Virus record (IMG/VR): IMGVR_UViG_3300014208_000007
Span: 1-62,041 of that record
Length of the DNA stretch: 62,041 nt
Origin: a virus
Strand: one strand, 5' to 3'
Shown piece by piece: positions 5,041 to 21,784 of this stretch; the stretch's first letter is position 1; each line of letters opens with the position of its first letter. The notes under the pieces are model-generated. The model was not told the origin of the DNA and made no database searches. It worked only from the letters and a program-made list of their open reading frames with translations. The position numbers and the translations under genes were made by a program.

Positions 5041-5406
5041 TTAGAACTTTACTTTGAGTCCGATACTGTAGTTGTGGGCGACACAGGCGGCATCAACCGC
5101 TATAGTCAGGGCTTGCCAAATGCGCCGGTACGGGTGAGGCAACCGGTAGGCGATATAGGTGTTCAGCGGGACATACAACGCCGTGAACGCGATCAGTTTG
5201 TCCCGGCTTGGATGCCTGCCAAGTAGCGGGTTCATTTCATGCCCGTTCGTGGTCTCCGCCCCGTTGATAGTCTGGCCCAAGTCAACAATCGCCAACCCCG
5301 CATACGTGACCGCAAGGGCCGTGTCTGTATTCGTCCACGGATCTTGTGCGAAAGCCGGAGTGCCGAGTACGGATATCAGGAGAACTGCTGCGATTGTGTG
5401 CTTCAT
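5041..5406 (-). CDS. Secreted/membrane protein, 121 aa
   Basis: Internal ATG (MKHTIAAVLLISVLGTPAFA|QD) overlaps the upstream stop (ATGA). Additional hydrophobic segments downstream. Confidence 0.65.
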   Translation of the reverse strand: MKHTIAAVLLISVLGTPAFAQDPWTNTDTALAVTYAGLAIVDLGQTINGAETTNGHEMNPLLGRHPSRDKLIAFTALYVPLNTYIAYRLPHPYRRIWQALTIAVDAACVAHNYSIGLKVKF

Positions 5407-6338
5407 GGCGATGTCCACGTGCCGTACCGATTGAACGATGACCACCCCGCCGCAGAATCGTAAATGAGGGTGATGTGTGACCCGGTTGTGCCCCCTACAT
5501 GGATGGAGGTGTTGTCGGCCAACGCAGTCCCATCAAGGCGAATCCGATCCGCCGAGTCGGGGTACACAACCAAATTTGAACCGTTGTTGAAGTGGTGGAA
5601 TGTGATGCTCATCCCGGCAAGAACGGCGGGAAGCGTGAGTACGATATTGTCGCCAGTCGATGTGTATACGACGCCGCCATAGCAATATGTAGTCGGAATT
5701 GTCGTATTGTCGGTATACGTAACGGTAGCGATAGACGCGCTTCCACCTGCGGTCCACGCCCCATCCCCGCGCAAAAAAGTAGTATTATCTTTTGTTCCCG
5801 TCCCGCCAAGTTTCCCTACGTCAATCGTGTTGTCCAGCATCTTCGCCGACGTGACCGTGTTGTCTATCAGGTCCGCACCGTTGAGAGTGTTGTCGGTGAA
5901 GACCGGCGTCCCCGTCACGGTAAGCGTGGCAGTCGTCACCCGCCCCGTCGCCGTCACATTGTCGAACCCGCTGATGTTGCCGGTACCGTCGCCGGTGATA
6001 TTGCCGGTCAGGGTAAGGTTGTCGAAACCGGAGATGGAACCGGTGCCGTCGCCGGTCAACCCCCCGACGATGGTGGTCGGAAAGCGGTATGGTTGATACT
6101 TGAGGGTGGTCCAATGCGTCAGGCCGTCGCCGATCTTCCAGTTTCCCGTGTCCGTTTCGTAGCCCGGTTCGCCGGCCGCAAGCACATTGTCCGCAGCGGT
6201 CCACGCGGCAGCCGTCCCCCGGCGGAACTGGATCGTGGAATAGAGCGAGGCGGCAGAAGCGAAGTGCGGTGGAATGGCGAGAGAGGAAATCAGGACCGCG
6301 ATGGTGATCGCGTAGAAGGCGGCGAGGAATTTCTTCAT
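5403..6338 (-). CDS. Tail-fibre protein with HylP/Mtd-type N-terminal domain, preceded by a Sec signal peptide, 311 aa
   Basis: STIQFRRGTAAAWTAADNVLAAGEPGYETDTGNWKIGDG matches the N-terminal motif of phage hyaluronidase/Mtd-type fibres (recollection). Here it follows MKKFLAAFYAITIAVLISSLAIPPHFASA. Tandem GDGTG.ISGFDN repeats. Confidence 0.65.
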   Translation of the reverse strand: MKKFLAAFYAITIAVLISSLAIPPHFASAASLYSTIQFRRGTAAAWTAADNVLAAGEPGYETDTGNWKIGDGLTHWTTLKYQPYRFPTTIVGGLTGDGTGSISGFDNLTLTGNITGDGTGNISGFDNVTATGRVTTATLTVTGTPVFTDNTLNGADLIDNTVTSAKMLDNTIDVGKLGGTGTKDNTTFLRGDGAWTAGGSASIATVTYTDNTTIPTTYCYGGVVYTSTGDNIVLTLPAVLAGMSITFHHFNNGSNLVVYPDSADRIRLDGTALADNTSIHVGGTTGSHITLIYDSAAGWSSFNRYGTWTSP

Positions 6339-6432: not shown

Positions 6433-9400
6433 CTATCTTCGCTCTCGAAGTATGCGGTTCCGCATGATTCTCGCCTCCCGGACGATATCCCTTTCCCCGG
6501 CGGAAAGGACGTTCTCGTGGAAGTGAATCGCCTTGGCGAGCTTGTCCTTTTCTTCGGCGTCCAACGTGTTCACGAAATCCCTGCCGTCCTTCTTGTTCAT
6601 GCCTCCCAACGGGTGCATTCTATCCAGGGAGGACCGTATCCCTTCCGGCGTCCCGTTGAGCGACAGGTATTCCTCCATGAACTTCTCTTTCGCGTCCGCG
6701 TCCTTGTACCGGATCGCAAGCCTCAAGTTGTAGAGTGCGTTGTTCTTCGGTGAGATGAAAGCTCCCTCCGAGGCTTTGCCGATCTTCTCGAGGTAGCGCG
6801 ACCTGGCCTGAAGGATATCGGAATAGGCGTTCTGCCCCGGGTCCGCCCGATAGACGAAGAACTGCGCGAGGGATTTCTGGTATCCCTCCGAGGGCAGTCC
6901 GGCGATCTCCTTGTATTCGTTCTCCAGCCCCACCGACTGAGCGAGGTAATACCCTCTGTCCCGGATCGTACGAGGCTTGAAGACATCAGGGAAGAGGACC
7001 TTGCCTGATGCGAGTTCCGCCGGGGTCTTGGCGATCGGCGTTATCCCCTGCGCGATGACGTTGACCGGGGATTTCGCCATCTCCAAGGCGATCTCGCGGA
7101 GCGTCCGCTTGCCGGAAGCCCACCGGGAGACGTGCAAGGGGAAGGCGTCCAACCCGAACCATTGCAGGAAGTCACCAAGCGCACCGATCCTTGTGAAGTT
7201 GATGATCTTCCCATCGGGGTCCCGCCCGAATATAATGTGCGGTCGGTTCCGGTTCTGTTCGTCCAGTTCGTCCTCTTCCTCGGGGAACATCAGGTTGTTC
7301 CACGCCTGAAGCATGGCCCAGAAGGCGGTTGCGGATATCAGGAACTTCCCGACGCGCCAAGCCGTGTACGGGGTCTTGGCGAACGCCCCGAGGGCTTTGC
7401 GACCAACCGCCTCGGCCACCTTCTTGTCGGAGGCCGCGTTCTTTGCGAACTGGATGTACCGTCGGAAGTTGACTTCCTTCCACGACCAGAATGGGATGAG
7501 ATGGTCCCGCATCGCATTTCCCATGACGCTGACCTGATCGTAGGCGCCGAGCAGTTGATTCGAGAGTGTGAATGCTTTGTCGTGCGGATCCTTGATCGCC
7601 GTGATCTCTTCGGGGATGGATGCGCCGAAGTTCTTCGGCGTACCCTTCGGGTCGGCCTTGATCTGCTCGATGTAGTCGAGGAACGCTGCGTACCGGAGCA
7701 CGGATTCCCGGAAGTCGGTAGCCAGTCGGACGGTTTTCCAATACTTCTTGAAGGCGGCCACCGGAAGGTCTCGCAGCGGTTCTCCGGCCTCACGGACGTG
7801 GGAGAAGATCCGCATCTTGTTCAATTCGGAGAGTTCCTGCGCCTGCAGGGTAGTCTCAAACCCGCCCCGCTTGAACCACTCCCGCATCTCCGGCGTCATC
7901 CCGCGGTCGGACGTGAAGACCTGATACAGTTCCCGTGCCGCCTGCGGGACCTTCTTGAACGTGGAGGGATTCCCGACGAACGCCGCGTCCGCATCGCCGG
8001 TAAGGTTTCGGAAGTTGTACTTGAAGAACCGCCGCGGGGAGACCAGTTGCCATACCTTCCAACCGGTCAGGATCTTCTTGTCGTACCCGAGCAGAACGCC
8101 CTGCGGCTTCGCCTTCAGGAGACTATTGAGCGTGTCTGCAACTTCCTGCTTGACGATGAACCGCTTCCGCTTACCACCAAGTGCCATGACCTGCCGAATT
8201 AGATCAGGATCGACCTCGGCCATGTCGAGGGCGCCTTCGCGCAACTGGTCCGCCAATTTCGCAGGGATCGACTCGGCCATGTAAAAGGTGTTACCTTCCC
8301 GGGGTTGCCACTCGATATACCCCTCCGGGATCCCCACGTCCTTGGTCATCGAGGCGACGTTGTAGACGTCGTCCACCGCCTTGATGGTCTTCGCCACCTC
8401 GATGTCGTAGAGCATCTGGGCGATGACTTCATACTCGGCTTCGAGATAGTTCGTGTTGATGTCGTACTCTGATCCCTTGCGTTTCTTGAGGAATCCTCGG
8501 CCAGTAGGAGTCCGCAACCGCTTGCCCGTGCCGGCCACGCCTTTGAGGTTCGCGTATTCGATGACCTGATGCCGGAAGTAATTCTCTTTCGTGAATCGGT
8601 CGGCCACCTTGAATCCTATAGCGCCCATCGCCGAGATGTAGGACTGCTTGACCGATTCCGAGAACTCCTGGCGCAGGAAGAGTCCCTGCTCCACCACGGG
8701 GTCCCTTCCCACAAGCCGGTCTATCTTTGCCAGTTCCGCCGCAACGGACTCCTTGGTGAATCCGAACGGCAGTAGGTGATCCGCCTTGGCTTCCTCCGCC
8801 AGATCGTCCAGCAGGACCTTTCGCTCGAAGAGGCCCATGCGTACCTTGTCGAATTTCACGGTGATCGCCTGCATCGCCCTGACGGTTCGGTCGGCCGCTA
8901 CCCCCTTCTGCTTCGAAAGTCGCAGCAGAGCGGTGCGAAGCGGGGCGAATTCGGCGTTCCTTGGAAGATGCTCGTACTCCCGGGTCGCCTTGTTGACCAA
9001 CGCACGGACGACCTCTCGCGCGCGGCCAAGCAGCGGTTCCGGCTTCAGCCCGTGCGCCGCCTTGTACCGGGCCTCGGACTCCTCCGTACCAAAGGCGTAG
9101 TCCTTCTCGGAGTATTCCGGTTTCCCGATCACCACGTCGACAGGGCGGATAGAAAGTCCCGCGGAAGGTTCCGACTCCGGTATAACCTTGTTGACCACAT
9201 CGGCGAGTGCCTGCTCTGGATCAGAAGATGAGGCAGTCGGCTTCTTCCCGTACCGGGGGGAGTAACCTTGATCCTGCTTCTCGACCGCAGCGGTAAGATT
9301 CTCGTCCAGCCACTTCTTCAGGGATTTCCCAGGCAACGTGTCGATGGCATTCTTCGCGCCCTCGATAGCGGCTTCCCTCGTGTCGTGGATGCCTCCAAAT

Positions 9401-12400
9401 CCAAGGCCCGATCTTCCTTCAGATACGGTCCATGACTTCCTCCCCATGACATGATGGACAAAGGTGTCCGTCCCTTCCTCGATGTCGACAGCGTATCCCT
9501 TTACTTCTTGGAACCCCGGAGTGTCGGACTGTACCCCCTTCGCCACAAAATACTTTTTCGTAGTTGGGGCGTCCGCAACGTCTTCCTTCCCGAGGACCTT
9601 CCCCTCCCACCAGTCCGCCTCGGGGGCCACTTCCTTCGCCATCACGGGGTCCGGAAGGCCGGTAAGTCCGGTCAGGTCGATCTCGTCTGCCGGTGTCTTC
9701 GACAGGTCCTCTACCGGCATCGCCTTGAGTTCCGCTTCCACTTCGATCAGGCGGCTTTCCTTGGCGGCGAGGTCGTCCTCGTGGTCGAACGGTTTATCAA
9801 GAAGTTCCCCGAGGTCCTTGTTCTGCTTGGCGAGCCGGTCGGTTTCCTTCCTTAATTCGGCCGGTTTTTCCTGCGCGTTCCGGACGAAGGTCTCGATCGA
9901 CGACATCACGCCGCGGGGGGTGGAGACGGTACGGTTTGCCCCAAGTTTGTCGCTCATCGTCTTTTCGAAGAGTTGATACCTGAATCCAGCGTCGCCTACG
10001 GTAACAATTATCCCATCGCCTTTCGCCATATTTACGTAATTATAATCAACGGTTGATTCCACTCTCATACCGAACGGAATACCATTCACGGTTCCGGAAT
10101 ATACCTGCGAAAGATTGACGCCGTTGCTTTTTAATTCATAGAACCGATCCCTGCTGTTTACATTTTTGAATGCTTCTGCGGTCTTCGCTCGAAGGGTTTT
10201 CTCTACCTCCGTGAAATGCTCAACGAAGGAATCCCTATCGAAGTCACCCTTTACCCCGGACAGCTTGAACTCGACTACCTTCCCGTCCGGGAACGCCTTG
10301 GCGAGAATCTTGATGGCGGATTCCCATTCCTTCGCGGACGCTTCGAGCCTTTCGATGCCGTTGTTGTTCTGCCATATGGTCGTCCTTGCCCTGCCGATTT
10401 CGTTCTCGTGGGAAGATTTCAGGGACTTGAGATTCCGGATCTGGCTTTCCAACCCGAACTTCTCCCGGACCTTCGGATTCCCGAAGGACGCCATCATATC
10501 TTCGAACGTACCCTGCGCCGGGTCGAACGGATCTTCAAAGGTCCGATCCTGCAGGTCGCCGCGGAGGATCTGGTTGATGAACTTCTGTTTCGTCTGAAGG
10601 CGCTGCGCGGCGACGGAATCCATGGTCGCCTTGTGCCCGTAGGTGGTTATGTCGATGGTGTCGATCGTGTTCCCTGGCCGCCAGATACGCCCGTTCCGCT
10701 GCTCGAAGTCCATCGGCCGGCCGGGGATGTCGAGGTGGTGGGCCCGGACGAGGCGCTCCTGGATGTTGACGCCTACCCCGAGCTTCTCCGTGCCCCCCAT
10801 GACGAACCGCACTTCGCCGTCATTCACTTTGGCAAAGAGGGATTCCCTTTTCTCGTCGGTCTTGTAATCGTGGATGATGGCGATTTCGCTCTCAGGCACC
10901 CCGTTCTTTATGAGTTTCTTCTTGATGTCCTCGAAGAGGTTGAATTTACCGTCGGGACTCTGATACAGGTCGGAGAAGATGACCTGCGCGGCTTTCAGCT
11001 CCTTCGTGTCCTTCCACACCTGCACGGCTTCCTCGACGAGCCTGTTCACCTTGGACCCCGGGATGTCCGGCCGAGAAGAATCGACCAATCGGAGGTCGAT
11101 CGCCGCCTTCTTCGCCAGACCGAAGAGGACCATGGGAACGTGGCGGCTGTCCCTCTTCTCCCTACCGGGCAGTTTGTCCCATGCTTCCTTCTGCAACTTG
11201 ATCCCTTGGATAAAACTCGCAAGTTCGGCCGGCCGCTCCAACATGATCTGCCGTGGGGCGCCGCCCTTGATCGTCGGACGGGCCACGTTCACGTCTTCCG
11301 CCATGATGACGTCGGCCGCCGTTCTCCACATCGTCAGGAGTTCCGGGCCGTTGACGTACTCCGCGAACCGCGAGACCTCCTTGAAGTCCGTCGTCATCGT
11401 TTCTTCCAGTTCCGTCTTCACGTTGCCGAAGTTCGCGGCGAACGCATCGAAACTGGTAACGCCGTATGCCTCCATGAGGTCGGGACGGATGTACCGCAGG
11501 TGCGTCCACAACTCCGCCATGGTGTTCGATATCGGAGTACCGGTGGCGATGATGACGTTCTTCCCGCCGGTCTTCCCTCGAACCTCGGCCGTCTTCAGGA
11601 GGTGAAGCATGGAACGCCCGGCCGATCCAGAGTCGATCCCCTTGACCCGGTCCATCTTCGTGTAAAACTCGCTGCGCTTGTATTTGTGGGCCTCGTCGAC
11701 AAGGAGGGCGTCCACCCCTAGGTCGTCGAAGTTCAGCATCCCTTCCTTATGGCCGCGCGCCAGAAGCGCCACGATCTTCTCTTCCTTGTTTTTCTTCAGT
11801 TTCTCCCACTGCTTTACGGTCCGCTTGTCTTCCCCTCGCGCCTCCATCTCCTTGATGATGGCTTCCAGTTCCGCGACCTGCTCCTGCACGTAGGCGGCTT
11901 CCTTCTCCGGCTTCACCGACAGCATGTCGTAGGTGCTGTGCTGAAGAACTACCGCGTCCCAATCACCTGTCGCTATCTGGGCAAGGAGTTTCTTTCGGTT
12001 CTTCGCCTGGAGCTGTCGGGTGTTCGGGATCAGGACCCTCGCCGTCGGGTACAGTTCACGGAACGCCCTGCCGTACTGGTTGAGGGTGGACCCCTGTACC
12101 ACGATCATCGGCTTCTTGGCCGTTCCGATGCGCCGCATCTCCATGGCCGTGGTGGCGAAGATGTAGGTCTTCCCGGTTCCGACCGCATGGGCCAACAGGG
12201 TGCTCTCCTGCAGCGACCGGGAGACCGCTCGCTTCTGGTGAGGATGCAGCGTGATCGAATGCGAGGCCCCGGGGTAATGCTTCATCGTCGGCGTGTGCGC
12301 GGTCTTCAGGACCATGTTGTTCTTGTCGCGGTTGTAAATGTCCTTCAGGACCGGCGCCCACTTCTCGCTCTTCCTCGTCCACGACAGGAACTCCGCCTGC

Positions 12401-15400
12401 AGTTTCTTCTGCATCTCGCGGGCGGCGATGGTCCTCTTTTCGTCAACCACCCACTTCGGGGCATTCCTCTCGCCCACGTCTATACGGACTTCCGTGAATT
12501 TCAGGTTGAAGGAGTCCTTTAGGATATCGAGCGCGTTGGCGCCATCCACCCCCCACGTGTTCTGCGCAAGGGCGGAGAGCCCGTGTCGCGGGTTATCCAT
12601 GAAAAACTTGCTGTTGTCGGCGGATTCAGAATACGAAACGGCGATGTCCATGCCGAGGGTGTCTTTGATGAAGTCGGTATATGCCTCCGTGGGTACCCAC
12701 GTCGACCCGATCCTCATGTATATCTGGTCGATCTCAAGGTCCTTCGGCTGCACCCTCTTCAGCGCCTCGATGTTCTTCTCGAACCGCGGATCGTCCTTGA
12801 CCGCCTCTTCCGCCCGGATCAGTTTGTCGCGCACGTTCCCGGAAAGGTATTCGTCCTGCCCCTCGAGCAGGCCGGTGGCGGGGTTGATGTACGCAAGTCC
12901 GTCATTGGCGAGTTTTTCCGTGACGCCTTCCACGGTGCTATTCAGAAGTTTTGCGATGTACGCCGCGTCGACCTTGTTCCGGTACGTCATCGATATCTTC
13001 ACCGCATCGTCGGCCGACTCCGCCGAGACCGGTTCCTTGAACGGGAAGATGGTCCGCTCCGTGAAGATCGCCGCCTTCACGAAAGTCTTTTCCTTCGCTG
13101 TGGTGGTCTGCCCCTTGTTCGGCCCGCTCTTCACCAGGTAGGTCTTCGGGACCTCGACCTGCTTCTCCAGGGAGAGGGCAAGCGGATACTCGCCGTCTTC
13201 GGAAAGCCACTGATGGGACTTGTCGGATACCGGCCCGTGGCGTTTCACGAATTCGTCGTATGCCTTGTTGAGTTTCGTCCGCTGCGCTTCGATCTGTGCG
13301 TCCGTCGATCCCTCGTCGAGTTGCAGGTGGATCAGTTCCTTCGCCAGATCCCGTACTCCGATATACCTTTTCGCAACTACCACTCTCGCTGCGTACTTCG
13401 TGAAGTCGGGACGTACCAGTTCCCCGCCTTCGTTCACGTACAGTTGCCCGTCCTTTTCGAGCAGGATCCCGTTCTTCGTGCCGGATTCGGCGAAGACCGT
13501 TCCCTGCTGACTGACAAGCGCCCCCTCGCCGGCGATCGCCGCGGGGAAACTGTTGACGGCCTTGGCGAGTGCCTCCTCGAGGGGTTCCTTGCCAGGCAGG
13601 AGGGTGTATTCCTTCCCGTCGCCGCCGTACATCGACCCCTTCATGGAGTGCTCGCCAAGGACCATCTCGGGGTGATTGATGAAATACTCGTTGACCGGGG
13701 CGTTCTCTCCGGCGGCTGTCTCCACAGTCAGGACGTTGCGGAACTGCTGCGCGCCGGTGAACTGCGAGGCGTCTTTTTTACGGAACACGAGGATGTCGGT
13801 GACCACTTCCGTCCCTGCGCTCTTCTCGAACGCGGCGGAGGGAAGGCGGACGGCTCCTACGAAATCCGCCTTCTTCGCAAAGTAGTCACGCATCTTGCCG
13901 CCGGAAGCGGAGTCAAGCGTGTAGTGAGACGTGATTGCGATGACGATTCCGCCTGGACGGACGAGATCGATCTTTCGTGCGATGAAATAGTTGTGGATGC
14001 TCCAGCCGGAATAATCCTTATGCTTGGGGTCAGTGACAGGATACTTCCCAAACGGCACGTTGGATATGGCGAGGTCCGCGGAGTTGTCCTTCATCGCCTG
14101 TGCGGTCTGGAACCCGGTGATCTGCACGTTCGCCTCGGGATAGAGGCGCTTCAGCATGGCCCCGGAGGTCTTGTCGAGCTCGACCGCCTGGACGATTGCG
14201 CGCTTGGCGATGCCTTCCGGCATCAGACCGAGGATGTGCCCAATACCTGCGGAGGGTTCCACGATCCGGCCGCCCTTGATCCCAAGGCGTTCCGCGATCG
14301 GCCACAGCCCTTTCGAAATGACTTCCCGCGAGGTGTAATGCGCGTTCATCGTGGACGCCTTGGCGGCGTTCCACTCCTCTTTGGAGAGGATCCCGCCGAG
14401 GTCCGGGTGGAGTTTCTTTCCGATGCGGTCAAACCACTTCTTGTATTTCTCAGGCTCTCCCTGCCACGACTGGATGGTCCCGTCCTTCTGTCTGTCGTAG
14501 ACGACTTCTTTGTCGAAACCGAACACGTCCTGCGCGAGGGACCCCCACCCGGAAAATTGAGCAAGGATCTTCTTCTCTTCGGGAGAGGGGTTACGGTTTT
14601 CCGCTTCGAGTTTTCGGGAGAGTTCTAACGCCTTGATGTTTGCATTGATCCGGCCGACCTTGCCAGCAGGTACGATTATATCTCCTGGAGCAATGACGTG
14701 GTTTCGGTCCTCGATTCGTACAGGTTCTCTGCCCACTGGATGATTGCGGACTTCAGGGACTCCTGCAACGGCTCCGGTTCCTTCTCCGGCGGGGGCGGCG
14801 ATATCACCTGCTCCGCCACGATCTCGTCGATCTGGTACCTTGGAAGTCCCTTTTCCTGAAGGTTGTACCCCAGGTCCAGCGCCCGCCCCACCTTCTCCGA
14901 CAGGTACATCCGGAGTGCCGACCGGTCCTTGAAGTACATCTTCTTCACGAACTGCGGCTTGTTCTCCAGGAGCCACAGAAGGTGGTCCATCCAATAACTG
15001 TCCTTCTCGTACTCCCTCGCCAGTTCCACCAACATCGGGGACTCCTCCTGATTCTATTGGGAGCGGTTTTTTCTCGGTTGTCAAGGGGGAAGTTACAGGT
15101 TCCTGGGCGATCTGTTTTCGCACCTCCGCCGCTGTAATTGCATTTTCTATCACCTCTTCCCGGGTGGCCCAACCGAGGCCATCGGCCAACAGGGGTTCTA
15201 CCGTGCGACGTACCCCCTCTTTCGTGATCTCGTAGGAGTATCGCCCCTTGTCGTTCTGGAGAATCTTGTAATCAATGTTCCCAAGGGTTCCGGCACCCTT
15301 TCTTGCGAGGTCTGCCCGCAGCGCATGTTCCGGAGAGAGAGAACCAGCAGCACCTTCTTTATTCTTTGTGAATTCAGTAGGAGACACCGTGGCCTTACTT

Positions 15401-18400
15401 CCCTCAAGGCGAATGTTCCCTTCCGAGTCGATATGTGAAATCTTATGCCCGGCCTTGTTCCATCCTGTCCTGTAATAAACCGTATCGCCGACACTGAATC
15501 CCTGCGCCAAAGTGAGTGCCTTGTTGGAGGAAACCTTTTCCTCGATCGGTATGGCCTTCACGCCATCGCGCGTTGGAATAATCGCGGCCTTCTTCCATGT
15601 GACGACGGGGGCCGACTCCGGTGTCTCTTCCTTCGCCTTCTCCTTCAGCCACGCCGCTTTCTTCTCGAACGGTTTCAGCGTGAAGAATTTCTGCGTGGCC
15701 CCCACGCCCGCGGGGAGTTTCTGCCCGGTGATCTCGTAGAAGATGTTCCGGCTGATCTTGTTCGACGGGTGGAGCATGGAGTTGTAGGCGCCGCGCTCGA
15801 TGGCGGTCCGCACCATCGCGGCGGACTTGATGGCAGCCGTCTCGCTGATCTTGTCGTCGATGGCCCGGTAGCGGTCGGCGATCTTCTGAAGTTCCTTCCC
15901 GCGCTCCGGCAGGGTCCCGTCCTTCAGGAAGTCCCGGACGAGGCGATAGTCGGTCATGACGGGCTGCAGGTGCGGCGACAGGTTCGGCTGGTAGCCAATC
16001 TGCCCGGGCTTCAGGTAGACGAGGAACCGGGGATCCGATTCGTGCTTCCCGAGGTCCCTGTTGCGCTCCGACATCGGCCGGCCTTCCGGGGCGGTGATGA
16101 CGTCCATGTCCGCGTCGGTCAGGTCCTTGCCGGGCTTGTCGATAGGGAGGCCCTTGAAGAGTTTCTGGTCTGTCTTGGCACGAGTAACCTCTGGCTTAGG
16201 CGTGCCTTCGCCCCCCTTGTCGACAGGTGCCTCCGGGGGGACGGAAGGGGGCGGCTCAACCGGTGCCTTCTTCGCTTCCGGGACCTCGACCACGCCCTGC
16301 TTGACCACTCTCGTCTCAGGAAGGACCTTGAAGTCAGCCTTGTCGGACTGCCCGATATGGGACGCCCACTGCTGGACTTCCTTTTTCCCGACCTTGTCGG
16401 TCTCAAGGGACCCAAGGTTGTGCTTCGCCGATGCCTCGTCGTCCCATACGATGTTCGTGGTCCCGTCGGAATTTGCCGAGGTGACCGTACCCTTCGACCC
16501 GTCGAAGATGGATTCGATCCGCTTCCCACGGATGGCCTCTACTCCGTGGGGGAGTTGGTCGAGGTGGACGGTGCCGGTCGCCTTCGATTGCTTGATGGCG
16601 AGGTTCCGCTTCTCGCGGTCAAGGCGAACATCCTTGCTTGTTGGATCAAGTTTCTCCCCCGATCTCGGCACCGCACCCCGTTCAGCTCGAGCATTCTCGA
16701 AGGATATCTCCGCTTCGGTCTTCTTCCGGGCGGGTTCGGGAACGACTACCTCGATCGGTTTCGGCTTCTCGCCGGCCAGTATCGCCTTGCGCCGGTCCTT
16801 CAAGGCGTCCAATGATCCCTTGTGCTTACTCAGGCGGTCGGACAATTCCATCCGCCCTAGGGTATCGGATGCCGGGGTATCCTTCAGTTCCTTCTCGAGG
16901 TTGGCGATGTGGGAATCGACCACCTGGATGTCGGAATCCACGGTCGGCAGGTCGGGCACCTGGCTTTCGGGGTACGGTGATCGGACAGGGCGCGGAGCGG
17001 TGCGGCGGTCGCCAACATGTGCCTCGGCCGCCTTCGCCGCCGCCTCGAGGTCAGTGAACTGACCGAGGGACTTCCCGCCCGGGGCCTTGGCCTCCCAGAC
17101 GGCCTCTCCCTTGTCGTTCTGCACCTCAACGATACCCGCCTTCGCGGTGCCGAAGTCGTCATCCTGCACGTCGAGGAAGTGCGACGGCTCGCCGGGGATG
17201 GCGCCGCGGTCTCCGGTCCAACGGTCGCCCGGGGGCGTCACTGGAGCGTCGGATACTTCGTGCGGGACGGGGCGGAGTTCGCTCTTGGGCTTCTCAGCCT
17301 GCCTTGTAAGGTATTTTTGATGTAACAGGGAATTTTTCAGGACGTAGGTAATCCCCTGCTCCCTCGGGGATTTACCTCCATACCCCATCTCTGGATCATC
17401 CAGAATTTCCTGTTGAATCTCGGGCGGGAGAGCGGGATTCAACTGATCGACCTTTCCGGGTTCGAATGCTACCCCTTTCCCTTCCTCGGCAACGGGAGCG
17501 GGTTTCTTTTCCCCGGCTTCAGGGACATTGACGGTCTCCTTCTTGGCTTTCTTCGCCGCCTTCGGCGCAGGTGGGGCCGGTTCAGGGGACGGAGTAGGAC
17601 CGGGGGGCGGAGCCTCTTCCGCGGCCTTTCCACCCTTCTTCTCTTCCCGGGTCTCCCGGAGCGCTGACCCGGCGCCTCCCATGAGGCCCATGATGAACGA
17701 CGGGGGGATAACGTTGATCCCGGAGATGAGTTGTTTTTTCGCCTCTTCTGCGGAGGGAGGTTCATAAGATACCCTTGCGTTTTCGTCGTAAAACGCCTCT
17801 TGCGCCTTGATTTTACGGACGTTTTCAGGTTCGGCAACAACATTCTTCGCCAGTATCTCGGCCGGTTCCTCAAGGTATTCCGTCCCCGCTTCGACGGCGC
17901 CGGTAGTCAACCAGTTGAGAAGGCGGGATTTCGCGCCTGGGGACTTGAGCATCTTCCCGACGGAGATAGCGTTGAGTCCGGCCGAGGCAAGCGTCATCGT
18001 CTCGCCGGCCAAAAGCGCCTGATCCTCGGTTCCTCCGCGCTTCAGGACCTCTTCGAAGGTCGACGCCCCCTCGAGCGCCCCGCCCGCGGAGCCACCGGCA
18101 ACGGATCCGCCGATCTGCGCGAGGCGGGCAATCACCTGTGGAGTCCACTGTATAGCCTTCCCGAGCACCTGAATCCCACGTCCTGCTCCCAAGGCCGGAA
18201 TGATCGAGGCGGCGAACGACGGGACGGTATCGGCTATGTTGTAGGCCCACCAAGCGGATTCTCCAAGAAGTTCGGGTTTCTTCAGGATGTCACCTTGGAG
18301 TTTCGTATCCGGCTTGAAGTTTTCGGCCGCCCCCTCCCAGAATTCCTTCGCCACCCGGCCGGCGCCCGAAAGCGACGGAATACCCAATTTCCTTCCGGCG

Positions 18401-18903
18401 ATATCGGTAAGGGTTCCGATGGTCTCGCCAAGACGGGTAGTCCCATGAAGAAGTCCGGTTCCAAGCGCCTCGGCCGTGCCGCCCTCCGACCCCGGGTAGT
18501 CGACGACAGGGAAGCCCCCGGCCTCTTCTTGGGGCCGAACCGACCGCACCATGGCGTCCCTCGCCCTCGAAAGCGGCCCCTGTGCCGCCACAGGCTGCGC
18601 AGGAGGCACGGAAGCGGCGGGGAGGGGGGTAGGGGCGGCGGAAACGGGTTCCGCCACAGGGGCGGCGCCCTCGGCCCCGGCAAGCATGGATTCCTCGGGG
18701 GGGACAGATGCCACCGGGGGCCCGGAGGGTTGCCGCAGGGTCAGCAGGCGGGGGATGTCCTCGGTGACGACCCGCTTCGCGCGCTCCCATGCGGTGTCGG
18801 GAGCAGGACTCCCGAATTCCGAGAATGCGCTCTGCCCGGAGGGGGTTGGCGGTAAATGCTCTTCAGCGGCGCTTCCCTTGCCGAATTCGTCGAATGCGCC
18901 CAC
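6433..18903 (-). CDS. Giant polyvalent protein, 4,156 aa: Gly-zipper/hydrophobic N-terminus, N6-adenine DNA methyltransferase module, SNF2/DEAH helicase module, long C-terminal region (P1 DarB-like architecture)
   Basis: Uninterrupted ORF with a GTG start 2 nt after the upstream stop. MTase motifs VEPSAGIGH and NVPFG. Helicase motifs AVGTGKTY, DEAH, ATGTPISN and QRNGRIWRPGN. Lies inside the virion gene block. Confidence 0.8.
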   Translation of the reverse strand: MGAFDEFGKGSAAEEHLPPTPSGQSAFSEFGSPAPDTAWERAKRVVTEDIPRLLTLRQPSGPPVASVPPEESMLAGAEGAAPVAEPVSAAPTPLPAASVPPAQPVAAQGPLSRARDAMVRSVRPQEEAGGFPVVDYPGSEGGTAEALGTGLLHGTTRLGETIGTLTDIAGRKLGIPSLSGAGRVAKEFWEGAAENFKPDTKLQGDILKKPELLGESAWWAYNIADTVPSFAASIIPALGAGRGIQVLGKAIQWTPQVIARLAQIGGSVAGGSAGGALEGASTFEEVLKRGGTEDQALLAGETMTLASAGLNAISVGKMLKSPGAKSRLLNWLTTGAVEAGTEYLEEPAEILAKNVVAEPENVRKIKAQEAFYDENARVSYEPPSAEEAKKQLISGINVIPPSFIMGLMGGAGSALRETREEKKGGKAAEEAPPPGPTPSPEPAPPAPKAAKKAKKETVNVPEAGEKKPAPVAEEGKGVAFEPGKVDQLNPALPPEIQQEILDDPEMGYGGKSPREQGITYVLKNSLLHQKYLTRQAEKPKSELRPVPHEVSDAPVTPPGDRWTGDRGAIPGEPSHFLDVQDDDFGTAKAGIVEVQNDKGEAVWEAKAPGGKSLGQFTDLEAAAKAAEAHVGDRRTAPRPVRSPYPESQVPDLPTVDSDIQVVDSHIANLEKELKDTPASDTLGRMELSDRLSKHKGSLDALKDRRKAILAGEKPKPIEVVVPEPARKKTEAEISFENARAERGAVPRSGEKLDPTSKDVRLDREKRNLAIKQSKATGTVHLDQLPHGVEAIRGKRIESIFDGSKGTVTSANSDGTTNIVWDDEASAKHNLGSLETDKVGKKEVQQWASHIGQSDKADFKVLPETRVVKQGVVEVPEAKKAPVEPPPSVPPEAPVDKGGEGTPKPEVTRAKTDQKLFKGLPIDKPGKDLTDADMDVITAPEGRPMSERNRDLGKHESDPRFLVYLKPGQIGYQPNLSPHLQPVMTDYRLVRDFLKDGTLPERGKELQKIADRYRAIDDKISETAAIKSAAMVRTAIERGAYNSMLHPSNKISRNIFYEITGQKLPAGVGATQKFFTLKPFEKKAAWLKEKAKEETPESAPVVTWKKAAIIPTRDGVKAIPIEEKVSSNKALTLAQGFSVGDTVYYRTGWNKAGHKISHIDSEGNIRLEGSKATVSPTEFTKNKEGAAGSLSPEHALRADLARKGAGTLGNIDYKILQNDKGRYSYEITKEGVRRTVEPLLADGLGWATREEVIENAITAAEVRKQIAQEPVTSPLTTEKKPLPIESGGVPDVGGTGEGVREGQLLDGPPSVAPGEQAAVREEDVLQGPVGTPDVPVGEGGAGAGPGVQPSGKGTSKVPDRRDRGGAGDIAAPAGEGTGAVAGVPEVRNHPVGREPVRIEDRNHVIAPGDIIVPAGKVGRINANIKALELSRKLEAENRNPSPEEKKILAQFSGWGSLAQDVFGFDKEVVYDRQKDGTIQSWQGEPEKYKKWFDRIGKKLHPDLGGILSKEEWNAAKASTMNAHYTSREVISKGLWPIAERLGIKGGRIVEPSAGIGHILGLMPEGIAKRAIVQAVELDKTSGAMLKRLYPEANVQITGFQTAQAMKDNSADLAISNVPFGKYPVTDPKHKDYSGWSIHNYFIARKIDLVRPGGIVIAITSHYTLDSASGGKMRDYFAKKADFVGAVRLPSAAFEKSAGTEVVTDILVFRKKDASQFTGAQQFRNVLTVETAAGENAPVNEYFINHPEMVLGEHSMKGSMYGGDGKEYTLLPGKEPLEEALAKAVNSFPAAIAGEGALVSQQGTVFAESGTKNGILLEKDGQLYVNEGGELVRPDFTKYAARVVVAKRYIGVRDLAKELIHLQLDEGSTDAQIEAQRTKLNKAYDEFVKRHGPVSDKSHQWLSEDGEYPLALSLEKQVEVPKTYLVKSGPNKGQTTTAKEKTFVKAAIFTERTIFPFKEPVSAESADDAVKISMTYRNKVDAAYIAKLLNSTVEGVTEKLANDGLAYINPATGLLEGQDEYLSGNVRDKLIRAEEAVKDDPRFEKNIEALKRVQPKDLEIDQIYMRIGSTWVPTEAYTDFIKDTLGMDIAVSYSESADNSKFFMDNPRHGLSALAQNTWGVDGANALDILKDSFNLKFTEVRIDVGERNAPKWVVDEKRTIAAREMQKKLQAEFLSWTRKSEKWAPVLKDIYNRDKNNMVLKTAHTPTMKHYPGASHSITLHPHQKRAVSRSLQESTLLAHAVGTGKTYIFATTAMEMRRIGTAKKPMIVVQGSTLNQYGRAFRELYPTARVLIPNTRQLQAKNRKKLLAQIATGDWDAVVLQHSTYDMLSVKPEKEAAYVQEQVAELEAIIKEMEARGEDKRTVKQWEKLKKNKEEKIVALLARGHKEGMLNFDDLGVDALLVDEAHKYKRSEFYTKMDRVKGIDSGSAGRSMLHLLKTAEVRGKTGGKNVIIATGTPISNTMAELWTHLRYIRPDLMEAYGVTSFDAFAANFGNVKTELEETMTTDFKEVSRFAEYVNGPELLTMWRTAADVIMAEDVNVARPTIKGGAPRQIMLERPAELASFIQGIKLQKEAWDKLPGREKRDSRHVPMVLFGLAKKAAIDLRLVDSSRPDIPGSKVNRLVEEAVQVWKDTKELKAAQVIFSDLYQSPDGKFNLFEDIKKKLIKNGVPESEIAIIHDYKTDEKRESLFAKVNDGEVRFVMGGTEKLGVGVNIQERLVRAHHLDIPGRPMDFEQRNGRIWRPGNTIDTIDITTYGHKATMDSVAAQRLQTKQKFINQILRGDLQDRTFEDPFDPAQGTFEDMMASFGNPKVREKFGLESQIRNLKSLKSSHENEIGRARTTIWQNNNGIERLEASAKEWESAIKILAKAFPDGKVVEFKLSGVKGDFDRDSFVEHFTEVEKTLRAKTAEAFKNVNSRDRFYELKSNGVNLSQVYSGTVNGIPFGMRVESTVDYNYVNMAKGDGIIVTVGDAGFRYQLFEKTMSDKLGANRTVSTPRGVMSSIETFVRNAQEKPAELRKETDRLAKQNKDLGELLDKPFDHEDDLAAKESRLIEVEAELKAMPVEDLSKTPADEIDLTGLTGLPDPVMAKEVAPEADWWEGKVLGKEDVADAPTTKKYFVAKGVQSDTPGFQEVKGYAVDIEEGTDTFVHHVMGRKSWTVSEGRSGLGFGGIHDTREAAIEGAKNAIDTLPGKSLKKWLDENLTAAVEKQDQGYSPRYGKKPTASSSDPEQALADVVNKVIPESEPSAGLSIRPVDVVIGKPEYSEKDYAFGTEESEARYKAAHGLKPEPLLGRAREVVRALVNKATREYEHLPRNAEFAPLRTALLRLSKQKGVAADRTVRAMQAITVKFDKVRMGLFERKVLLDDLAEEAKADHLLPFGFTKESVAAELAKIDRLVGRDPVVEQGLFLRQEFSESVKQSYISAMGAIGFKVADRFTKENYFRHQVIEYANLKGVAGTGKRLRTPTGRGFLKKRKGSEYDINTNYLEAEYEVIAQMLYDIEVAKTIKAVDDVYNVASMTKDVGIPEGYIEWQPREGNTFYMAESIPAKLADQLREGALDMAEVDPDLIRQVMALGGKRKRFIVKQEVADTLNSLLKAKPQGVLLGYDKKILTGWKVWQLVSPRRFFKYNFRNLTGDADAAFVGNPSTFKKVPQAARELYQVFTSDRGMTPEMREWFKRGGFETTLQAQELSELNKMRIFSHVREAGEPLRDLPVAAFKKYWKTVRLATDFRESVLRYAAFLDYIEQIKADPKGTPKNFGASIPEEITAIKDPHDKAFTLSNQLLGAYDQVSVMGNAMRDHLIPFWSWKEVNFRRYIQFAKNAASDKKVAEAVGRKALGAFAKTPYTAWRVGKFLISATAFWAMLQAWNNLMFPEEEDELDEQNRNRPHIIFGRDPDGKIINFTRIGALGDFLQWFGLDAFPLHVSRWASGKRTLREIALEMAKSPVNVIAQGITPIAKTPAELASGKVLFPDVFKPRTIRDRGYYLAQSVGLENEYKEIAGLPSEGYQKSLAQFFVYRADPGQNAYSDILQARSRYLEKIGKASEGAFISPKNNALYNLRLAIRYKDADAKEKFMEEYLSLNGTPEGIRSSLDRMHPLGGMNKKDGRDFVNTLDAEEKDKLAKAIHFHENVLSAGERDIVREARIMRNRILRERR
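10600..12260 (-). other. SNF2/DEAH helicase module of the giant protein (approximate bounds)
   Basis: Motif I GTGKTY at 12163-12180, motif II DEAH at 11686-11697, motif VI QRNGRIWRPGN at 10669-10701. Confidence 0.7.
13700..14560 (-). other. N6-adenine DNA methyltransferase module of the giant protein (approximate bounds)
   Basis: SAM-binding motif VEPSAGIGH at 14236-14262 and catalytic NVPFG ((D/N)PP(Y/F)-type) at 14047-14061. Confidence 0.7.
14676..15035 (-). CDS. Nested 119-aa gene overprinted in the +1 frame on the giant ORF; helical protein of unknown function
   Basis: ATG at 15035 with GGAGGAG 6 nt upstream and an in-frame TAG 7 codons upstream. Protein-like sequence (MLVELAREYEKDSYWMDHLLWLLENKPQF...). 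By hand count about 101 of 119 codons end in G/C, the genome's coding signature. The giant frame here is A/T-rich at position 3. Confidence 0.6.
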   Translation of the reverse strand: MLVELAREYEKDSYWMDHLLWLLENKPQFVKKMYFKDRSALRMYLSEKVGRALDLGYNLQEKGLPRYQIDEIVAEQVISPPPPEKEPEPLQESLKSAIIQWAENLYESRTETTSLLQEI

Positions 18904-18905
18904 GC

Positions 18906-20921
18906 CTATTCCCCTTCCACCTTGGAAGGATCATATCCGCGTCCCTTGGCCTCTTCTTCCATCGCCTTCTGCTTTGCTGGTCCGTTCTTCATATCCTTGA
19001 ATTTCTTTACGATAGAGTCACGCGCCACCTTTGTTATCGCAACGAGTCTTGGCGGAAACTTCTTCCTTGCCTTTTCTATCGCTTGGCTGGCGTTCATTCC
19101 TCCTTCGATAAGCCGGAGGGATTCTGCTTTCTCGTCAGCAAGTCGATCGCGTTCTCCGTCTATCCATCCTTGGTCTTTTGTTGAGGCATCGAGTTTCTTG
19201 TCGTTCTTTTCGTAGATACGTTCCGCTTGTGCGGACTGCGAATCGACCCGTCGCAACCTGCGGTCTTCGTCCCGATCCTCCGCCCCCGCTTCCGGCGCCT
19301 TCAGCGACCACCCTTTCGGGGGAACGTACTCCTTCCCCTTTTCGATGAATACTTCCTTGGTCTGGACCTGCCCCTTGGAGTCCTTGGGACCGTAGATCGT
19401 CTTGGCGAGTCCCTTCTCGGCCTTCTTCTCCCCCGCGGCCTCGTCGAACGCCTTGACCTGGGGGGACCCCTCTCCGAACCGGGTGACGAGCCGGACGCGA
19501 TCGGAGACGGTCTTACCCGCCTCGGACTGCAACGCTTCCTTCTCTCCGATGATCGTCTTCGCCAGTTCGGTCGTTTCCTTCACCGACGAATCCGGGGCCA
19601 GCTTCGTGAACTCCGTGATGAACGTATTCCGCTGCTCGGCGGTCGACTTGGAGGTATCGACCTTCGCCATGGCGGCGGATACGGCCTTGTTCTCCGCCCG
19701 GGTACGCTTGATCTCCTCCATCTTCTTGGCGAATTCCTTGGGGTCCAGCCGAGCGCGCAACTGCTGAATCTTCGTCCCGAGACCCTCGTGCGCACCGAGG
19801 TACTGGTCGAGTACCCCGGCGGGGAGCTTCACCACCGGGGCGTTCGGATCCCCGCCGGCACGGTCAGCCGTCAGGGGGGCGTCGTAGGTGTTGGTTTCCC
19901 CTCCCGAGTCCAACTGCTCACGAACCGTCTCGGCAAACGCCTTCTGTTCGGGCGTGACGTTAAGGGCCGACGGATCACCGGAAATGATCCTTCCGACAAT
20001 CGTTTCCCGAATGGCCTGCTTGTCCCCTACCCCGTAATCGGCGAAAGACTTCTCCTGCTCCGGGGTCAGGTCGAAGCTGGGAGAAAGGTTCTTTTTTTTC
20101 ATCACAAGCCTTGCTTGCTCGTTCCTTATGACGGCATTCTTTTCCTTGTCCGACAGTTTGCTGTATGGGTTCAAGACGACCGTGTTGGACTCGAAATCCG
20201 CCATCCCGGCCACGCCAGGGTTACCCGCGAAGTAATCGTTTTCGGATGAAGACGGTTTTCGTGTGCCGTAGGCCGGTGCCGTGACGTCGAGGACGAACGA
20301 CAGGGAGCCGTCCTTCGGATCGACGATGACGGCCTTGACCTTCTTGGTAACGCCGGACTTCGCATCGTTCCCGTACCGGTCCGTTCCTCGGTTGATCTGT
20401 GGTTCAAATACCGTGTCGAAGGCGTCGAAAGTATCGGGGGCCTGCTCCCGATTCAATACTCCGCCCTTCATCAGTTGAGGGGCCTTCTCCTTTATGAACC
20501 CCCGGACCTTTCGGATCGCATCGGTCTGCACGTCAACCTTGTCCGGGTCAAGAAGCGGATTCTTCCCGAGCGTCTTGAATACTGCGTCCTGCTGCTCCGG
20601 CGTGTAGTTCGGATCCCGGCCTTCCGCCTTGGCTGCCTCGTTCTCTGCGTCCGCACCGAGAAGGTGACCGAGCGTGGCCTTCGTCTCGTCGTCTACCTTC
20701 TTGATACCGGTAGCCCGCGACCACTCCTCGTTTTCCTTGGCCTTCTGGTCCATCTCCGCCCGCGTCTTCTCGCTGGACAACTTCTTGTCCGCGATCTCCT
20801 GCGCCAGGAGCTCCCGGCGAAGCGGAGCCTCGTCTCGCTTCTGGAGGATGTCCGACATTTCGCCGAACGACTTGATGGCGGATTCGATCGGATTGCTTTG
20901 GACGGACCTGAGAAAGCCCAT
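18906..20921 (-). CDS. Large coiled-coil virion/internal (ejection) protein candidate, 671 aa
   Basis: Internal ATG of ORF 18906-20987 preceded by AAGGGGGGA. Lys/Glu-rich helical sequence. Lies immediately upstream of the giant protein. Confidence 0.6.
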   Translation of the reverse strand: MGFLRSVQSNPIESAIKSFGEMSDILQKRDEAPLRRELLAQEIADKKLSSEKTRAEMDQKAKENEEWSRATGIKKVDDETKATLGHLLGADAENEAAKAEGRDPNYTPEQQDAVFKTLGKNPLLDPDKVDVQTDAIRKVRGFIKEKAPQLMKGGVLNREQAPDTFDAFDTVFEPQINRGTDRYGNDAKSGVTKKVKAVIVDPKDGSLSFVLDVTAPAYGTRKPSSSENDYFAGNPGVAGMADFESNTVVLNPYSKLSDKEKNAVIRNEQARLVMKKKNLSPSFDLTPEQEKSFADYGVGDKQAIRETIVGRIISGDPSALNVTPEQKAFAETVREQLDSGGETNTYDAPLTADRAGGDPNAPVVKLPAGVLDQYLGAHEGLGTKIQQLRARLDPKEFAKKMEEIKRTRAENKAVSAAMAKVDTSKSTAEQRNTFITEFTKLAPDSSVKETTELAKTIIGEKEALQSEAGKTVSDRVRLVTRFGEGSPQVKAFDEAAGEKKAEKGLAKTIYGPKDSKGQVQTKEVFIEKGKEYVPPKGWSLKAPEAGAEDRDEDRRLRRVDSQSAQAERIYEKNDKKLDASTKDQGWIDGERDRLADEKAESLRLIEGGMNASQAIEKARKKFPPRLVAITKVARDSIVKKFKDMKNGPAKQKAMEEEAKGRGYDPSKVEGE

Positions 20922-20932
20922 GTGAATCCCCC

Positions 20933-21202
20933 TTAGAATAACTGCGAGAAAAGGTAACCCAAGCCAGCCCCGATGACCGCGCCCCACGGACCGCCGACGG
21001 ACCCGTACTCCGCCCCTACGTAGGCGCCAACCATCGCCCCAGAAGTCGTACCGGTTACGGCCATCTGGGTCTTCTGCGCCTTCCTTGCGGAATCCAGTTC
21101 CTTGTTGGCGGAGTCGATTTCATTCTGCTCCGCGGATTCACGGACAAATCCCGACAGCGCACGGTTCTGGTAGTCGATCCCGGTATTGATAAGTCCAGAC
21201 AT
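20933..21202 (-). CDS. Small protein with C-terminal glycine-zipper membrane segment, 89 aa
   Basis: C-terminus GAMVGAYVGAEYGSVGGPWGAVIGAGLGYLF. Located in the virion module. Confidence 0.65.
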   Translation of the reverse strand: MSGLINTGIDYQNRALSGFVRESAEQNEIDSANKELDSARKAQKTQMAVTGTTSGAMVGAYVGAEYGSVGGPWGAVIGAGLGYLFSQLF

Positions 21203-21772: not shown

Positions 21773-21784
21773 GATGTTTCTCCC

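Follow-up and report, generated by a model that had tools for sequence, protein, structure and literature searches.

What a short-tailed phage might do with a single gene of 12.5 kb is the question raised by the virus record IMGVR_UViG_3300014208_000007, whose 62,041 nucleotides, taken at full length, constitute the stretch of DNA analysed here (the window). The gene (6433..18903 on the minus strand, as are all the features described below) starts at a GTG codon and encodes a cysteine-free polyvalent protein of 4,156 amino acids (aa), of 457 kDa and pI 7.4, which product we refer to as the giant. As one intact open reading frame (ORF) it occupies 20.1% of the phage genome, in agreement with the approximate 20% given in a preliminary description of the window. 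We consider it probable that the phage, which is uncultivated and short-tailed, belongs by its tail to the GP4/933W/Bcep22 lineage and has the giant as its third ejection protein, and that the cargo of the giant, a methylase–helicase pair of the type of P1 DarB held between two helical regions (the N-module and the C-module), guards the entering DNA. The way in which a half-megadalton enzyme may be packed into a 60-kb podophage, and leave it again by threading, is of interest for host range, through the evasion of restriction, as well as for the engineering of phages that deliver proteins.

The DarB-type core extends over aa 1350–3096 (9616..14856) and comprises a helical N-terminal region with the string SGWGS, a methylase, an SNF2 helicase, and a C-terminal extension. 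In the PHROGs, the family phrog_10089, annotated as DarB-like antirestriction, matched aa 1387–3096 with E = 0 and 1431 bits, the methylase region matching phrog_3820 and phrog_1685 in addition; in Pfam, ResIII, SNF2-rel_dom, and Helicase_C scored over the curated cut-offs and the Eco57I methylase under its own. The gamma-class N6-adenine DNA methylase (aa ~1500–1760, 13624..14406) carries motif I, VEPSAGIGH, at aa 1548 and motif IV, NVPFG, at aa 1615, while the SWI2/SNF2-type helicase/translocase (aa ~2217–2790, 10534..12255) carries GTGKT at aa 2242, from which residue the longer string GTGKTY also starts, DEAH at aa 2403, TGTPISN at aa ~2450, and QRNGRIWRPGN at aa 2735; all five of the motifs that the preliminary description had quoted are accordingly located in the giant. 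Comparison with P1 DarB by BLASTP gave three collinear matches, with the methylase preceding the helicase in both proteins: one to the methylase (31% identity over 210 aa, E = 2e-25) and one to each helicase lobe (E = 9e-10 for lobe 1 and 1e-9 for lobe 2), the unusual motif IV NVPFG being common to the two proteins. The DarB-like architecture proposed at the outset is thus borne out, both by the alignment and by the profile searches that had been recommended for its motifs. In a 12-sequence alignment the methylase keeps its motifs I and IV and the helicase its motifs I, II, III, and VI, so that both enzymes look active; homology and motifs show the cargo to be a complete and catalytically intact DarB-type pair.

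When the giant was compared by tblastn with 50,697 phage genomes, 137 records were matched, solely within aa ~1350–2870 and at 31–35% identity, these being the giants of Klebsiella LASTA/SopranoGao, Pseudomonas Itty13, Vibrio VvAW1, Agrobacterium Atu_ph08, Sinorhizobium PBC5, and Erwinia PEp14, along with those of Ralstonia and Burkholderia phages. Over ~1,500 aa the core was 30–35% identical to the giants of LASTA, Bcep22, PEp14, VvAW1, Atu_ph08, and Heva. On either side of the core, aa 1–1350 and aa 3001–4156 were without a match in Pfam, the PHROGs, NCBIfam, or these same genomes, as was to be expected from the long unassigned regions noted earlier. Within the giant itself we detected neither Pfam LPD nor MuF domains, nor the HExxH metallopeptidase motif that would suggest self-processing; the SGWGS string, located at aa ~1447–1451 ahead of the methylase, is compatible with the GxG[GAS] motif of LPD36, a helical domain reported on the N-terminal side of the methylase in such pairs (PMC5512222), for which domain there was no Pfam match at E ≤ 0.1. 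Membership of a defence system was also considered upon NCBIfam matches to DISARM DrmD, to an anti-phage PLD protein, to BREX PglX, and to MADS, and was rejected because these helicase and methylase matches are partial and far under the cut-offs (10- to 40-fold below for DrmD, PLD, and PglX).

The giant is the third gene of a small–medium–giant block whose reading frames abut, in which a protein of 89 aa is followed by one of 671 or 693 aa, by the giant, and then by a tail fibre. The 89-aa cysteine-free protein (20933..21202) matches the Gly-zipper C-terminal end of the P22 ejection protein gp7, scoring over the Pfam cut-off for P22_gp7 (E = 2.9e-8) and aligning by hhalign to P22 gp7 residues 184–227 with a probability of 90%. 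The second ORF, likewise cysteine-free (693 aa, 18906..20987; 671 aa in the contig's call), is by its position a candidate middle ejection protein; it is 66% identical to the 681-aa gene of a sibling phage described below, and was without a family match and without hhalign similarity to P22 gp20 or T7 gp15. In its 693-aa form this ORF shares 55 nt with the gp7-like gene, and the contig's call together with the sibling alignment, which begins near 20921, suggest a later start. The fibre gene downstream of the giant (5403..6338) has an Mtd_N-type N-terminus, recognized by PHROG tail-fibre families and by Pfam Mtd_N, so that the giant does lie, as first described, between internal-virion-type proteins and fibre genes.

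Ejection-protein genes form a small operon in which a gp14-like gene and gp15 precede the larger gp16 (PMC8954989), and in the N4-like phages the order small, medium, giant ends with a virion RNA polymerase of ~3,500 aa (PMC11445570; PMC13434306). Because the giant occupies the third position of such a block, the likeness to N4 that the preliminary description had drawn is apt as an analogy of function and position, but not as a homology: no RNA polymerase, which that description had named as a finding that would count against a DarB-like protein, was matched in Pfam, the PHROGs, NCBIfam, or the PDB sequences, there being only two chance DxDxD strings.

The amino-acid composition points in the same direction. 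The giant contains 0 cysteines in its 4,156 aa, where ~52 would be predicted at the phage average (P ~ 1e-23), which average we obtained from the 33 other ORFs of the phage (159 cysteines in 12,644 aa, or 1.26%). The four genes directly upstream are also devoid of cysteine, the result being a contiguous five-gene block of 5,311 aa without that residue. We found 0 cysteines as well in T7 gp15 and gp16, in P22 gp20 and gp16, in the N4 virion RNA polymerase (3,500 aa), and in the giants of LASTA, Bcep22, PEp14, VvAW1, and Heva (3,640–4,914 aa); 189 of 226 proteins bearing the C-module likewise had none, and P1 DarB, from a long-tailed phage, had 9. A study of the phage DEV described cysteine suppression as a conserved trait of the Schitoviridae ejection operon and ascribed it to the transit of a disulfide-forming periplasm (PMC11445570). 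The composition is evidence, intrinsic to the sequence, that the entire giant polypeptide, enzymes included, is constrained in the way usual for ejected proteins; and the extension of this suppression from N4-like ejection operons to the lineage of the giant offers a cheap marker of ejected proteins that requires nothing beyond their sequence.

The most conserved part of the giant is its C-terminal ~900 aa, which the preliminary description had left unassigned. This C-module (aa 3225–4133, 6505..9231), which we designate the type C tail, is, according to its homologues and to an AlphaFold2 (AF2) model, an all-helical conserved scaffold. A query with aa 3101–4156 returned 129 metagenomic proteins at 40–65% identity; in all 120 of the homologues listed the module was C-terminal, behind N-terminal extensions that varied from 0 to 930 aa. 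An exhaustive profile search recovered 2,606 cluster representatives at E ≤ 1e-3, of which 1,952 reached E ≤ 1e-30. In the 150 of these that were listed the module was again C-terminal, as it was in all of the ~226 members examined, whose median length was ~1,414 aa and whose extremes were 725 and 5,484 aa. The partners that precede it include ART-PolyVal, GGDEF, SLT lytic transglycosylase, NlpC/P60, and ddrB-ParB domains, together with helicases of the Strawberry-notch and DarB types. About 35 residues of the module are invariant, approximately half of them charged or polar, as in YFRHQV, KYNxRNxTGDAD, DFRExxLRY, LSNDLLGAYD, and RPHII.

The C-module had no match in Pfam, the PHROGs, or NCBIfam, and a PDB sequence-profile search returned only a low-complexity match to Huntingtin; it thus represents a large scaffold family, known from metagenomes only, that current domain libraries do not hold. 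The AF2 model, built from a 72-sequence alignment, was all-helical, with a mean predicted local distance difference test score (pLDDT) of 77.8 and a predicted template-modelling score (pTM) of 0.73. A fold search with this model against the PDB gave nothing at E ≤ 0.001, and one against BFVD gave 52 matches at E ≤ 1e-3, the best at 5e-34, with template-modelling scores of 0.4–0.54 over ~1,000 columns. Nearly all the named matches were C-terminal pieces of large polyvalent, RelA/SpoT, LT_GEWL, Zeta toxin, or ART-PolyVal proteins, and the cultured phages PTXU04, Anabaena A-4L, and Cellulophaga phi19:3 were among their sources. The module is preceded by an acidic linker with a small domain (aa 3097–3224, 9232..9615), which lies outside both the DarB-family and the C-module matches (net charge −14 over aa 3001–3200), and is followed by a basic tail and the stop codon (aa 4134–4156, 6433..6504; ...RIMRNRILRERR), with a net charge of +5 in the last 15 residues. 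Two further attributions of the C-terminus were rejected: the basic tail as a family feature comparable with that of T7 gp16, only 29% of the homologues being this basic; and membership of the PLxRFG proteins, as NCBIfam names those of LASTA, H66, and others, for which there was no NCBIfam match, the motif itself was absent, a BLASTP comparison with the LASTA tail was not significant, and hhalign gave a probability of 0.7%.

At the other end, the giant opens with a Pro/Ala-rich leader, probably disordered from its composition (aa 1–125, 18529..18903), which is in part conserved with the sibling phage (aa ~36–176, 55% identity). There follows the N-module (aa ~126–430, 17614..18528), in which long helices are bundled and some segments are rich in Gly and Ala and moderately hydrophobic; it contains the motifs WWAYN, GGxLEGxxTY, and TEYLEEPAE. 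Its homologues, at 35–49% identity, begin other large phage proteins or lie close to their N-terminus. Its AF2 model was entirely helical, with helices of 30–35 residues, a pLDDT of 84, and a pTM of 0.79; the first 20 residues of the model (giant aa ~120–139, at the end of the leader) had pLDDT values under 50. A fold search against the PDB returned nothing significant, the weak top matches being helical bundles of transporters, and word-indexed homologue searches with the N-terminal region gave only 4 matches each, probably from swamping by low-complexity segments. The hydrophobic, Gly-zipper-rich N-terminus of the preliminary description is therefore to be restated: a conserved helical module is indeed present there and the Gly plus Ala content is ~26%, but only one 19-residue window exceeds a Kyte–Doolittle value of 1.3 (aa 392–411). 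The hydrophobic peaks of the giant, at Kyte–Doolittle values of 0.9–1.4, fall in Gly/Ala-rich helices at aa 220–252, 296–317, 390–417, and 3847–3874.

Between the N-module and the core, aa 431–1349 (14857..17613) consist, to judge from their composition, of low-complexity linkers, rich in P, A, K, and E at aa ~430–520 and in G, P, and E at aa ~1230–1345, together with small unassigned domains. This region had no match of its own in Pfam, the PHROGs, or NCBIfam, and only patchy ones among our metagenomic proteins, namely to the sibling's giant, P0132 (aa 466–705 at 49% and aa 995–1079 at 72%), and to P0151, P0001, and P0208.

The N-module was found joined to three different tails of ~900 aa: in P0050 to a tail of the same family as the C-module of the giant; in P0121, from a 61-kb phage, to an InPase and LPD38 cargo and a tail of the Bcep22/Stx type; and in P0122 to a tail of the PLxRFG type. 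Among deposited phages the Bcep22/Stx type was represented by 337 records and the PLxRFG type by 73. The three tail families could not be aligned by profile comparison; their equal size, position, and partners nevertheless suggest that they are functionally equivalent.

What the scaffold carries can be exchanged, as is best seen in the sibling phage, whose 3,287-aa orthologue of the giant (P0132) was recovered on several contigs (L014:10001-19864, L015:5025-14888). Between this phage and the window the neighbouring virion genes are 90–95% identical and the C-module 89%, and the interior of P0132 holds ART-PolyVal and LPD1 domains, without any helicase, where the giant has the DarB pair. The combination of a DarB core with the C-module recurs in P0183 (with an ART domain in addition), P0159, P0206, and P0202, the cores being only 32–35% identical; and among 13 giants with the C-module, the cargo was a Strawberry-notch helicase in 6, of the DarB type in 3–4, ART in 2, and ddrB-ParB in 1. 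From the sibling swap and from this variety we conclude that the scaffold is stable and the cargo exchangeable. The sibling pair constitutes a clear natural exchange of a methylase–helicase for an ADP-ribosyltransferase, which opens a model of a scaffold with exchangeable effectors to direct test. More tentatively, and with a confidence well short of that accorded to the ejection of the giant, we propose that the N- and C-modules together may form a delivery chassis that has not been described before, is conserved to an unusual degree among uncultivated podophages, and is able to accept swappable enzyme cargo of several kilobases.

The giants of the Strawberry-notch class (P0151, P0225, P0208, P0200, P0135, and others) contain AAA_34 and Helicase_C_4, and their consensus places a methylase (TVLEPSAGIGG ... 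MNPPFS) ahead of the helicase, which arrangement constitutes a second and unrelated methylase–helicase pair on the same C-module scaffold. The sibling genome, for its part, encodes downstream a Lar-type restriction-alleviation protein (PF14354) and an integrase; this phage is probably temperate and seems to use a different anti-restriction solution.

The ejection of the giant is supported by the gp7-headed block, by the absence of cysteine, and by the proteomics of the phages JC1 and phi24B, and its packaging and injection gain support from those relatives of the C-module that carry peptidoglycan hydrolases and effector domains. It is thus very probable that the giant is packed in the capsid and enters the host with the DNA, as the preliminary description had proposed; the steps that follow, from ejection to methylation and anti-restriction, we infer from sequence and by analogy. 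The N- and C-modules would carry the giant into the capsid and out through the tail channel, and would probably share, with the gp7-like 89-aa and the 671/693-aa proteins, in the formation of a conduit across the envelope. The cargo between them, strung on flexible linkers at aa ~430–520 and ~1230–1345, would be suited to unfolding and to threading through a narrow channel. Once inside, with or ahead of the DNA, the DarB pair might load on the genome and track along it at the expense of ATP, by analogy with P1 DarB, and, acting in cis, might by methylation or shielding keep restriction enzymes of type I and similar kinds from cleaving that DNA ahead of phage gene expression, as the genetics of P1 and the model published for this domain pair suggest.

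Several observations weigh against this interpretation. A hydropathy scan found no strong transmembrane segment anywhere in the giant. The 40–65% identity of the C-module is above that usual for ejection proteins, the homologues of T7 gp16 being ~20% identical on average (PMC8954989), so that the module may have an additional function; this degree of conservation and the ~35 invariant residues hint at many interaction partners or at an activity of its own beyond passive anchoring, for example as a hub that binds DNA, or as a ratchet, located at the inner membrane. The C-module, moreover, resembles neither T7 gp16, nor P22 gp16, nor any PDB entry in sequence or fold, and has no profile similarity to the PLxRFG-type or Bcep22-type tails of the giants that have been detected in virions; its equivalence to these tails rests, in consequence, on position, size, and partners. 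The hhalign probability against T7 gp16 and P22 gp16 was <1%, the comparison profiles for those two proteins and for the Bcep22-type tail being shallow (3–4 sequences or a single one), so that a distant homology may have been missed. The delivery route of P1 DarB must differ from the one proposed here, since P1 is long-tailed and its DarB contains 9 cysteines. Finally, the antirestriction system of P1 also needs DarA, Hdf, DdrA, DdrB, and Ulx (PMC9144972), and none of these accessory proteins was seen among the 20 neighbouring virion-module ORFs scanned against the PHROGs; the Bcep22-like phages likewise lack them (PMC9144972), and the accessory Dar proteins belong to the P1 system rather than to the domain pair.

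Of the alternatives, the one that survives best, though we deem it unlikely, grants that the giant is packaged and ejected, and makes of the SNF2 translocase chiefly a motor for the internalization of the genome, comparable with the ratcheting of DNA by T7 gp16 or with the transcription by which the N4 virion RNA polymerase draws DNA in, with methylation secondary and anti-restriction not the object of selection. The giant does sit at the position of gp16 and gp50, proteins implicated in DNA translocation; the SNF2 enzymes are translocases of double-stranded DNA (PMC5512222); and 9–10 of the 13 giants with the C-module carry a helicase of some type. The sibling, however, with near-identical virion genes, has no helicase in its giant, and most C-module proteins measure ~1,400 aa and bear unrelated cargo, from which we conclude that DNA entry in this lineage does not need the DarB pair. 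In addition, the methylase motifs are as fully conserved as those of the helicase, and the genetics of P1 DarB points to protection from type I restriction (PMC5512222).

That the giant should remain unpackaged we regard as improbable; it would then act late and in the cytoplasm, as a self-protection methylase with a remodelling helicase that modifies the progeny DNA ahead of packaging, and its location in the virion module would be incidental. Orphan methylases are common in phages, the giant has no strong membrane segments, and its packaging is itself deduced from sequence. Such an enzyme, nevertheless, would leave unexplained why, in a 457-kDa protein, ~2,400 aa consist of helical and linker sequence without enzymatic function, as well as the cysteine suppression that it has in common with the gp7-like block and with known ejection proteins. 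Furthermore, proteins of the same overall architecture, with a DarB core or another cargo followed by a tail of ~900 aa, have been found in the virions of JC1 and phi24B, and both the exchange for an ADP-ribosyltransferase and the peptidoglycan-hydrolase partners fit delivery to a new host.

Still less credible to us is a giant that forms a fixed component of the tail or capsid, such as a ruler or an internal core, and is never released, its enzymes acting at the surface or idle. One BFVD match, from the Anabaena phage A-4L, is annotated as a tail protein, and several homologues in phage records are labelled as structural proteins. A DNA methylase and an ATP-dependent translocase, on the other hand, require cytoplasmic DNA, S-adenosylmethionine (SAM), and ATP, and the suppression of cysteine indicates passage through the periplasm (PMC11445570). 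In the Stx phage phi24B, gp47 (2,811 aa) was abundant in virion mass spectrometry although the ordered density of the virion did not show it; the authors assigned it as an ejection protein.

That the ORF might be an artefact, either an assembly chimera or separate genes fused by frameshift, or else a disguised virion RNA polymerase of the N4 type, is suggested by its origin in a metagenome assembly and its extreme size, and is next to negligible in view of the identical protein on two contigs, of a 12.5-kb frame with 0 internal stops and an even composition over its modules, of the independent recurrence of DarB core plus C-module on other contigs (P0183, P0159, P0206, and P0202), and of the want of any polymerase family, motif, or PDB match. 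The longer of the two contigs is a 61,943-bp ENA assembly. The G+C content at third codon positions (GC3) is 0.69–0.80 and similar across the parts of the giant and the neighbouring genes, from which there is no sign of a chimera or of a very recent foreign insert. The start codon is preceded by a Shine–Dalgarno sequence, GGAAGGGG, and is separated by 2 nt from the stop codon of the upstream gene; no terminator or promoter was found on the coding strand between the giant and the fibre gene. Since the first and last 123 nt of the window (1–123 and 61919–62041) are identical, representing an assembly overlap that leaves 61,918 unique bases, the genome is to be considered complete and circular or circularly permuted (61,918 bp). 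No near-identical DNA was found among the deposited phages.

Returning to the ejected giant and its surroundings, the cysteine-free block is headed by two adjacent genes of, in the order of transcription, 187 and 186 aa (21212..22348), with a weak PHROG match to a virion structural protein and with identities of 90% and 95% to their counterparts in the sibling phage; this pair of nearly equal size may represent further ejection or plug proteins. The phage possesses a P22-type portal (Pfam, E = 1e-136) and, upstream of the giant, the genes for an SU10-type adaptor and for a 532-aa tail protein of the GP4/933W type that matches PDB 8jov_A, 'Virion-associated phage protein' (E = 2e-70). This tail protein matched 376 phage genomes, including groups that carry giants: Vibrio, Stx-converting, Ralstonia, Burkholderia, Klebsiella, and Pseudomonas phages. 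With respect to the order TerL, portal, major capsid protein that had been read from the window, the portal is firm, but the terminase candidate (842 aa, 39988–42516) gave only a weak Terminase_6N match at aa 466–612, and no major capsid protein was identified by PHROG, Pfam, or PDB sequence searches. The same 842-aa candidate contains a weak Hint (intein) match at aa 146–180 and may be a large terminase with an intein. Four enzyme genes (31142–36904) stand with the portal gene on one side and the probable head genes on the other, and encode a family-9 glycosyltransferase (E = 3e-17) of the heptosyltransferase type, a SAM methyltransferase, a radical SAM protein with SPASM, and a PIG-L deacetylase; this is an odd location for sugar or peptide modification, and the cassette could serve the glycosylation of the virion or a modified peptide.

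Among known systems, the Bcep22-like and related giants are the likest to the one described here (Bcep22 gp75, 4,602 aa; JC1 gp69, 4,515 aa; and those of Ralstonia GP4/Heva, LASTA, PEp14, and VvAW1). As in the window, these proteins measure 3,600–4,900 aa, take up ~20% of a genome of ~60 kb, contain the same DarB-type core, are cysteine-free, and are encoded by the last large gene of the virion module; after the core come ~900–1,000 helical aa, and the genomes encode a homologous nozzle-type tail protein. The N-terminal ~1,350 aa and the C-terminal ~1,060 aa of the giant, in contrast, have no sequence or profile similarity to theirs, whose tails belong to the PLxRFG and Bcep22/Stx families. 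In the original description of Bcep22, its giant was reportedly suggested to help in the entry of the DNA. A 'DarB-like' protein of 4,500–4,600 aa ends the virion module of the Bcep22-like podophages and accounts for ~22% of the genome, and JC1 gp69 was found in CsCl-purified virions with 51 unique peptides (PMC9144972).

P1 DarB (2,255 aa) contains the homologous methylase followed by the SNF2 helicase, is packaged in the head, and protects, in cis, the DNA that it accompanies from restriction by type I systems (PMC5512222); it differs from the giant in lacking both the N- and the C-module and in belonging to a long-tailed myovirus. More broadly, Iyer et al. (2017) applied the term polyvalent to proteins of several domains that enter the cell together with the injected DNA, with the methylase–helicase dyad among their commonest cargo, and the pair of which P1 DarB is the archetype was proposed to track along the entering DNA and to methylate it against restriction (PMC5512222). 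The giant resembles these proteins in that several unrelated domains are united in one polypeptide among the virion genes, in that architectures vary among orthologues, and in that its relatives carry ART-PolyVal, LPD1, LPD38, InPase, and ddrB-ParB; it differs in that its N- and C-modules are not among the families of the libraries searched.

The likeness to N4 gp50 and DEV gp71 is one of layout. These are cysteine-free giants of ~3,500 aa encoded beside small and medium ejection proteins, and gp50 comprises an N-terminal injection region, a central enzyme, and a large C-terminal domain needed for encapsidation; a beads-on-a-string build has been proposed for its passage through a channel of ~35 Å (PMC13434306). 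The central enzyme is there an RNA polymerase, however, and we detected no sequence relationship to the giant, nor any N4-type protein among the 50 BFVD fold matches listed for the C-module. T7 gp16 and P22 gp16 are likewise encoded by the third and largest gene of an ejection block and are mostly helical and cysteine-free, T7 gp16 having in addition an N-terminal lytic transglycosylase, as do some relatives of the C-module; but there is no similarity to them in sequence or fold, the giant is 3–7 times larger, and the C-module is far more conserved, the known gp16 homologues being barely alignable between groups (PMC8954989).

Virion giants that bear DarB, and polyvalent proteins that are injected, are consequently already established, and the headline finding is not new: the preliminary description is supported in its reading of the giant, but such proteins had been described before and the conserved C-terminal part had escaped it. 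The departure from the known giants lies in the scaffold, composed of an N-module and a C-module, the sequence families of which neither cultured phages nor the domain libraries contain.

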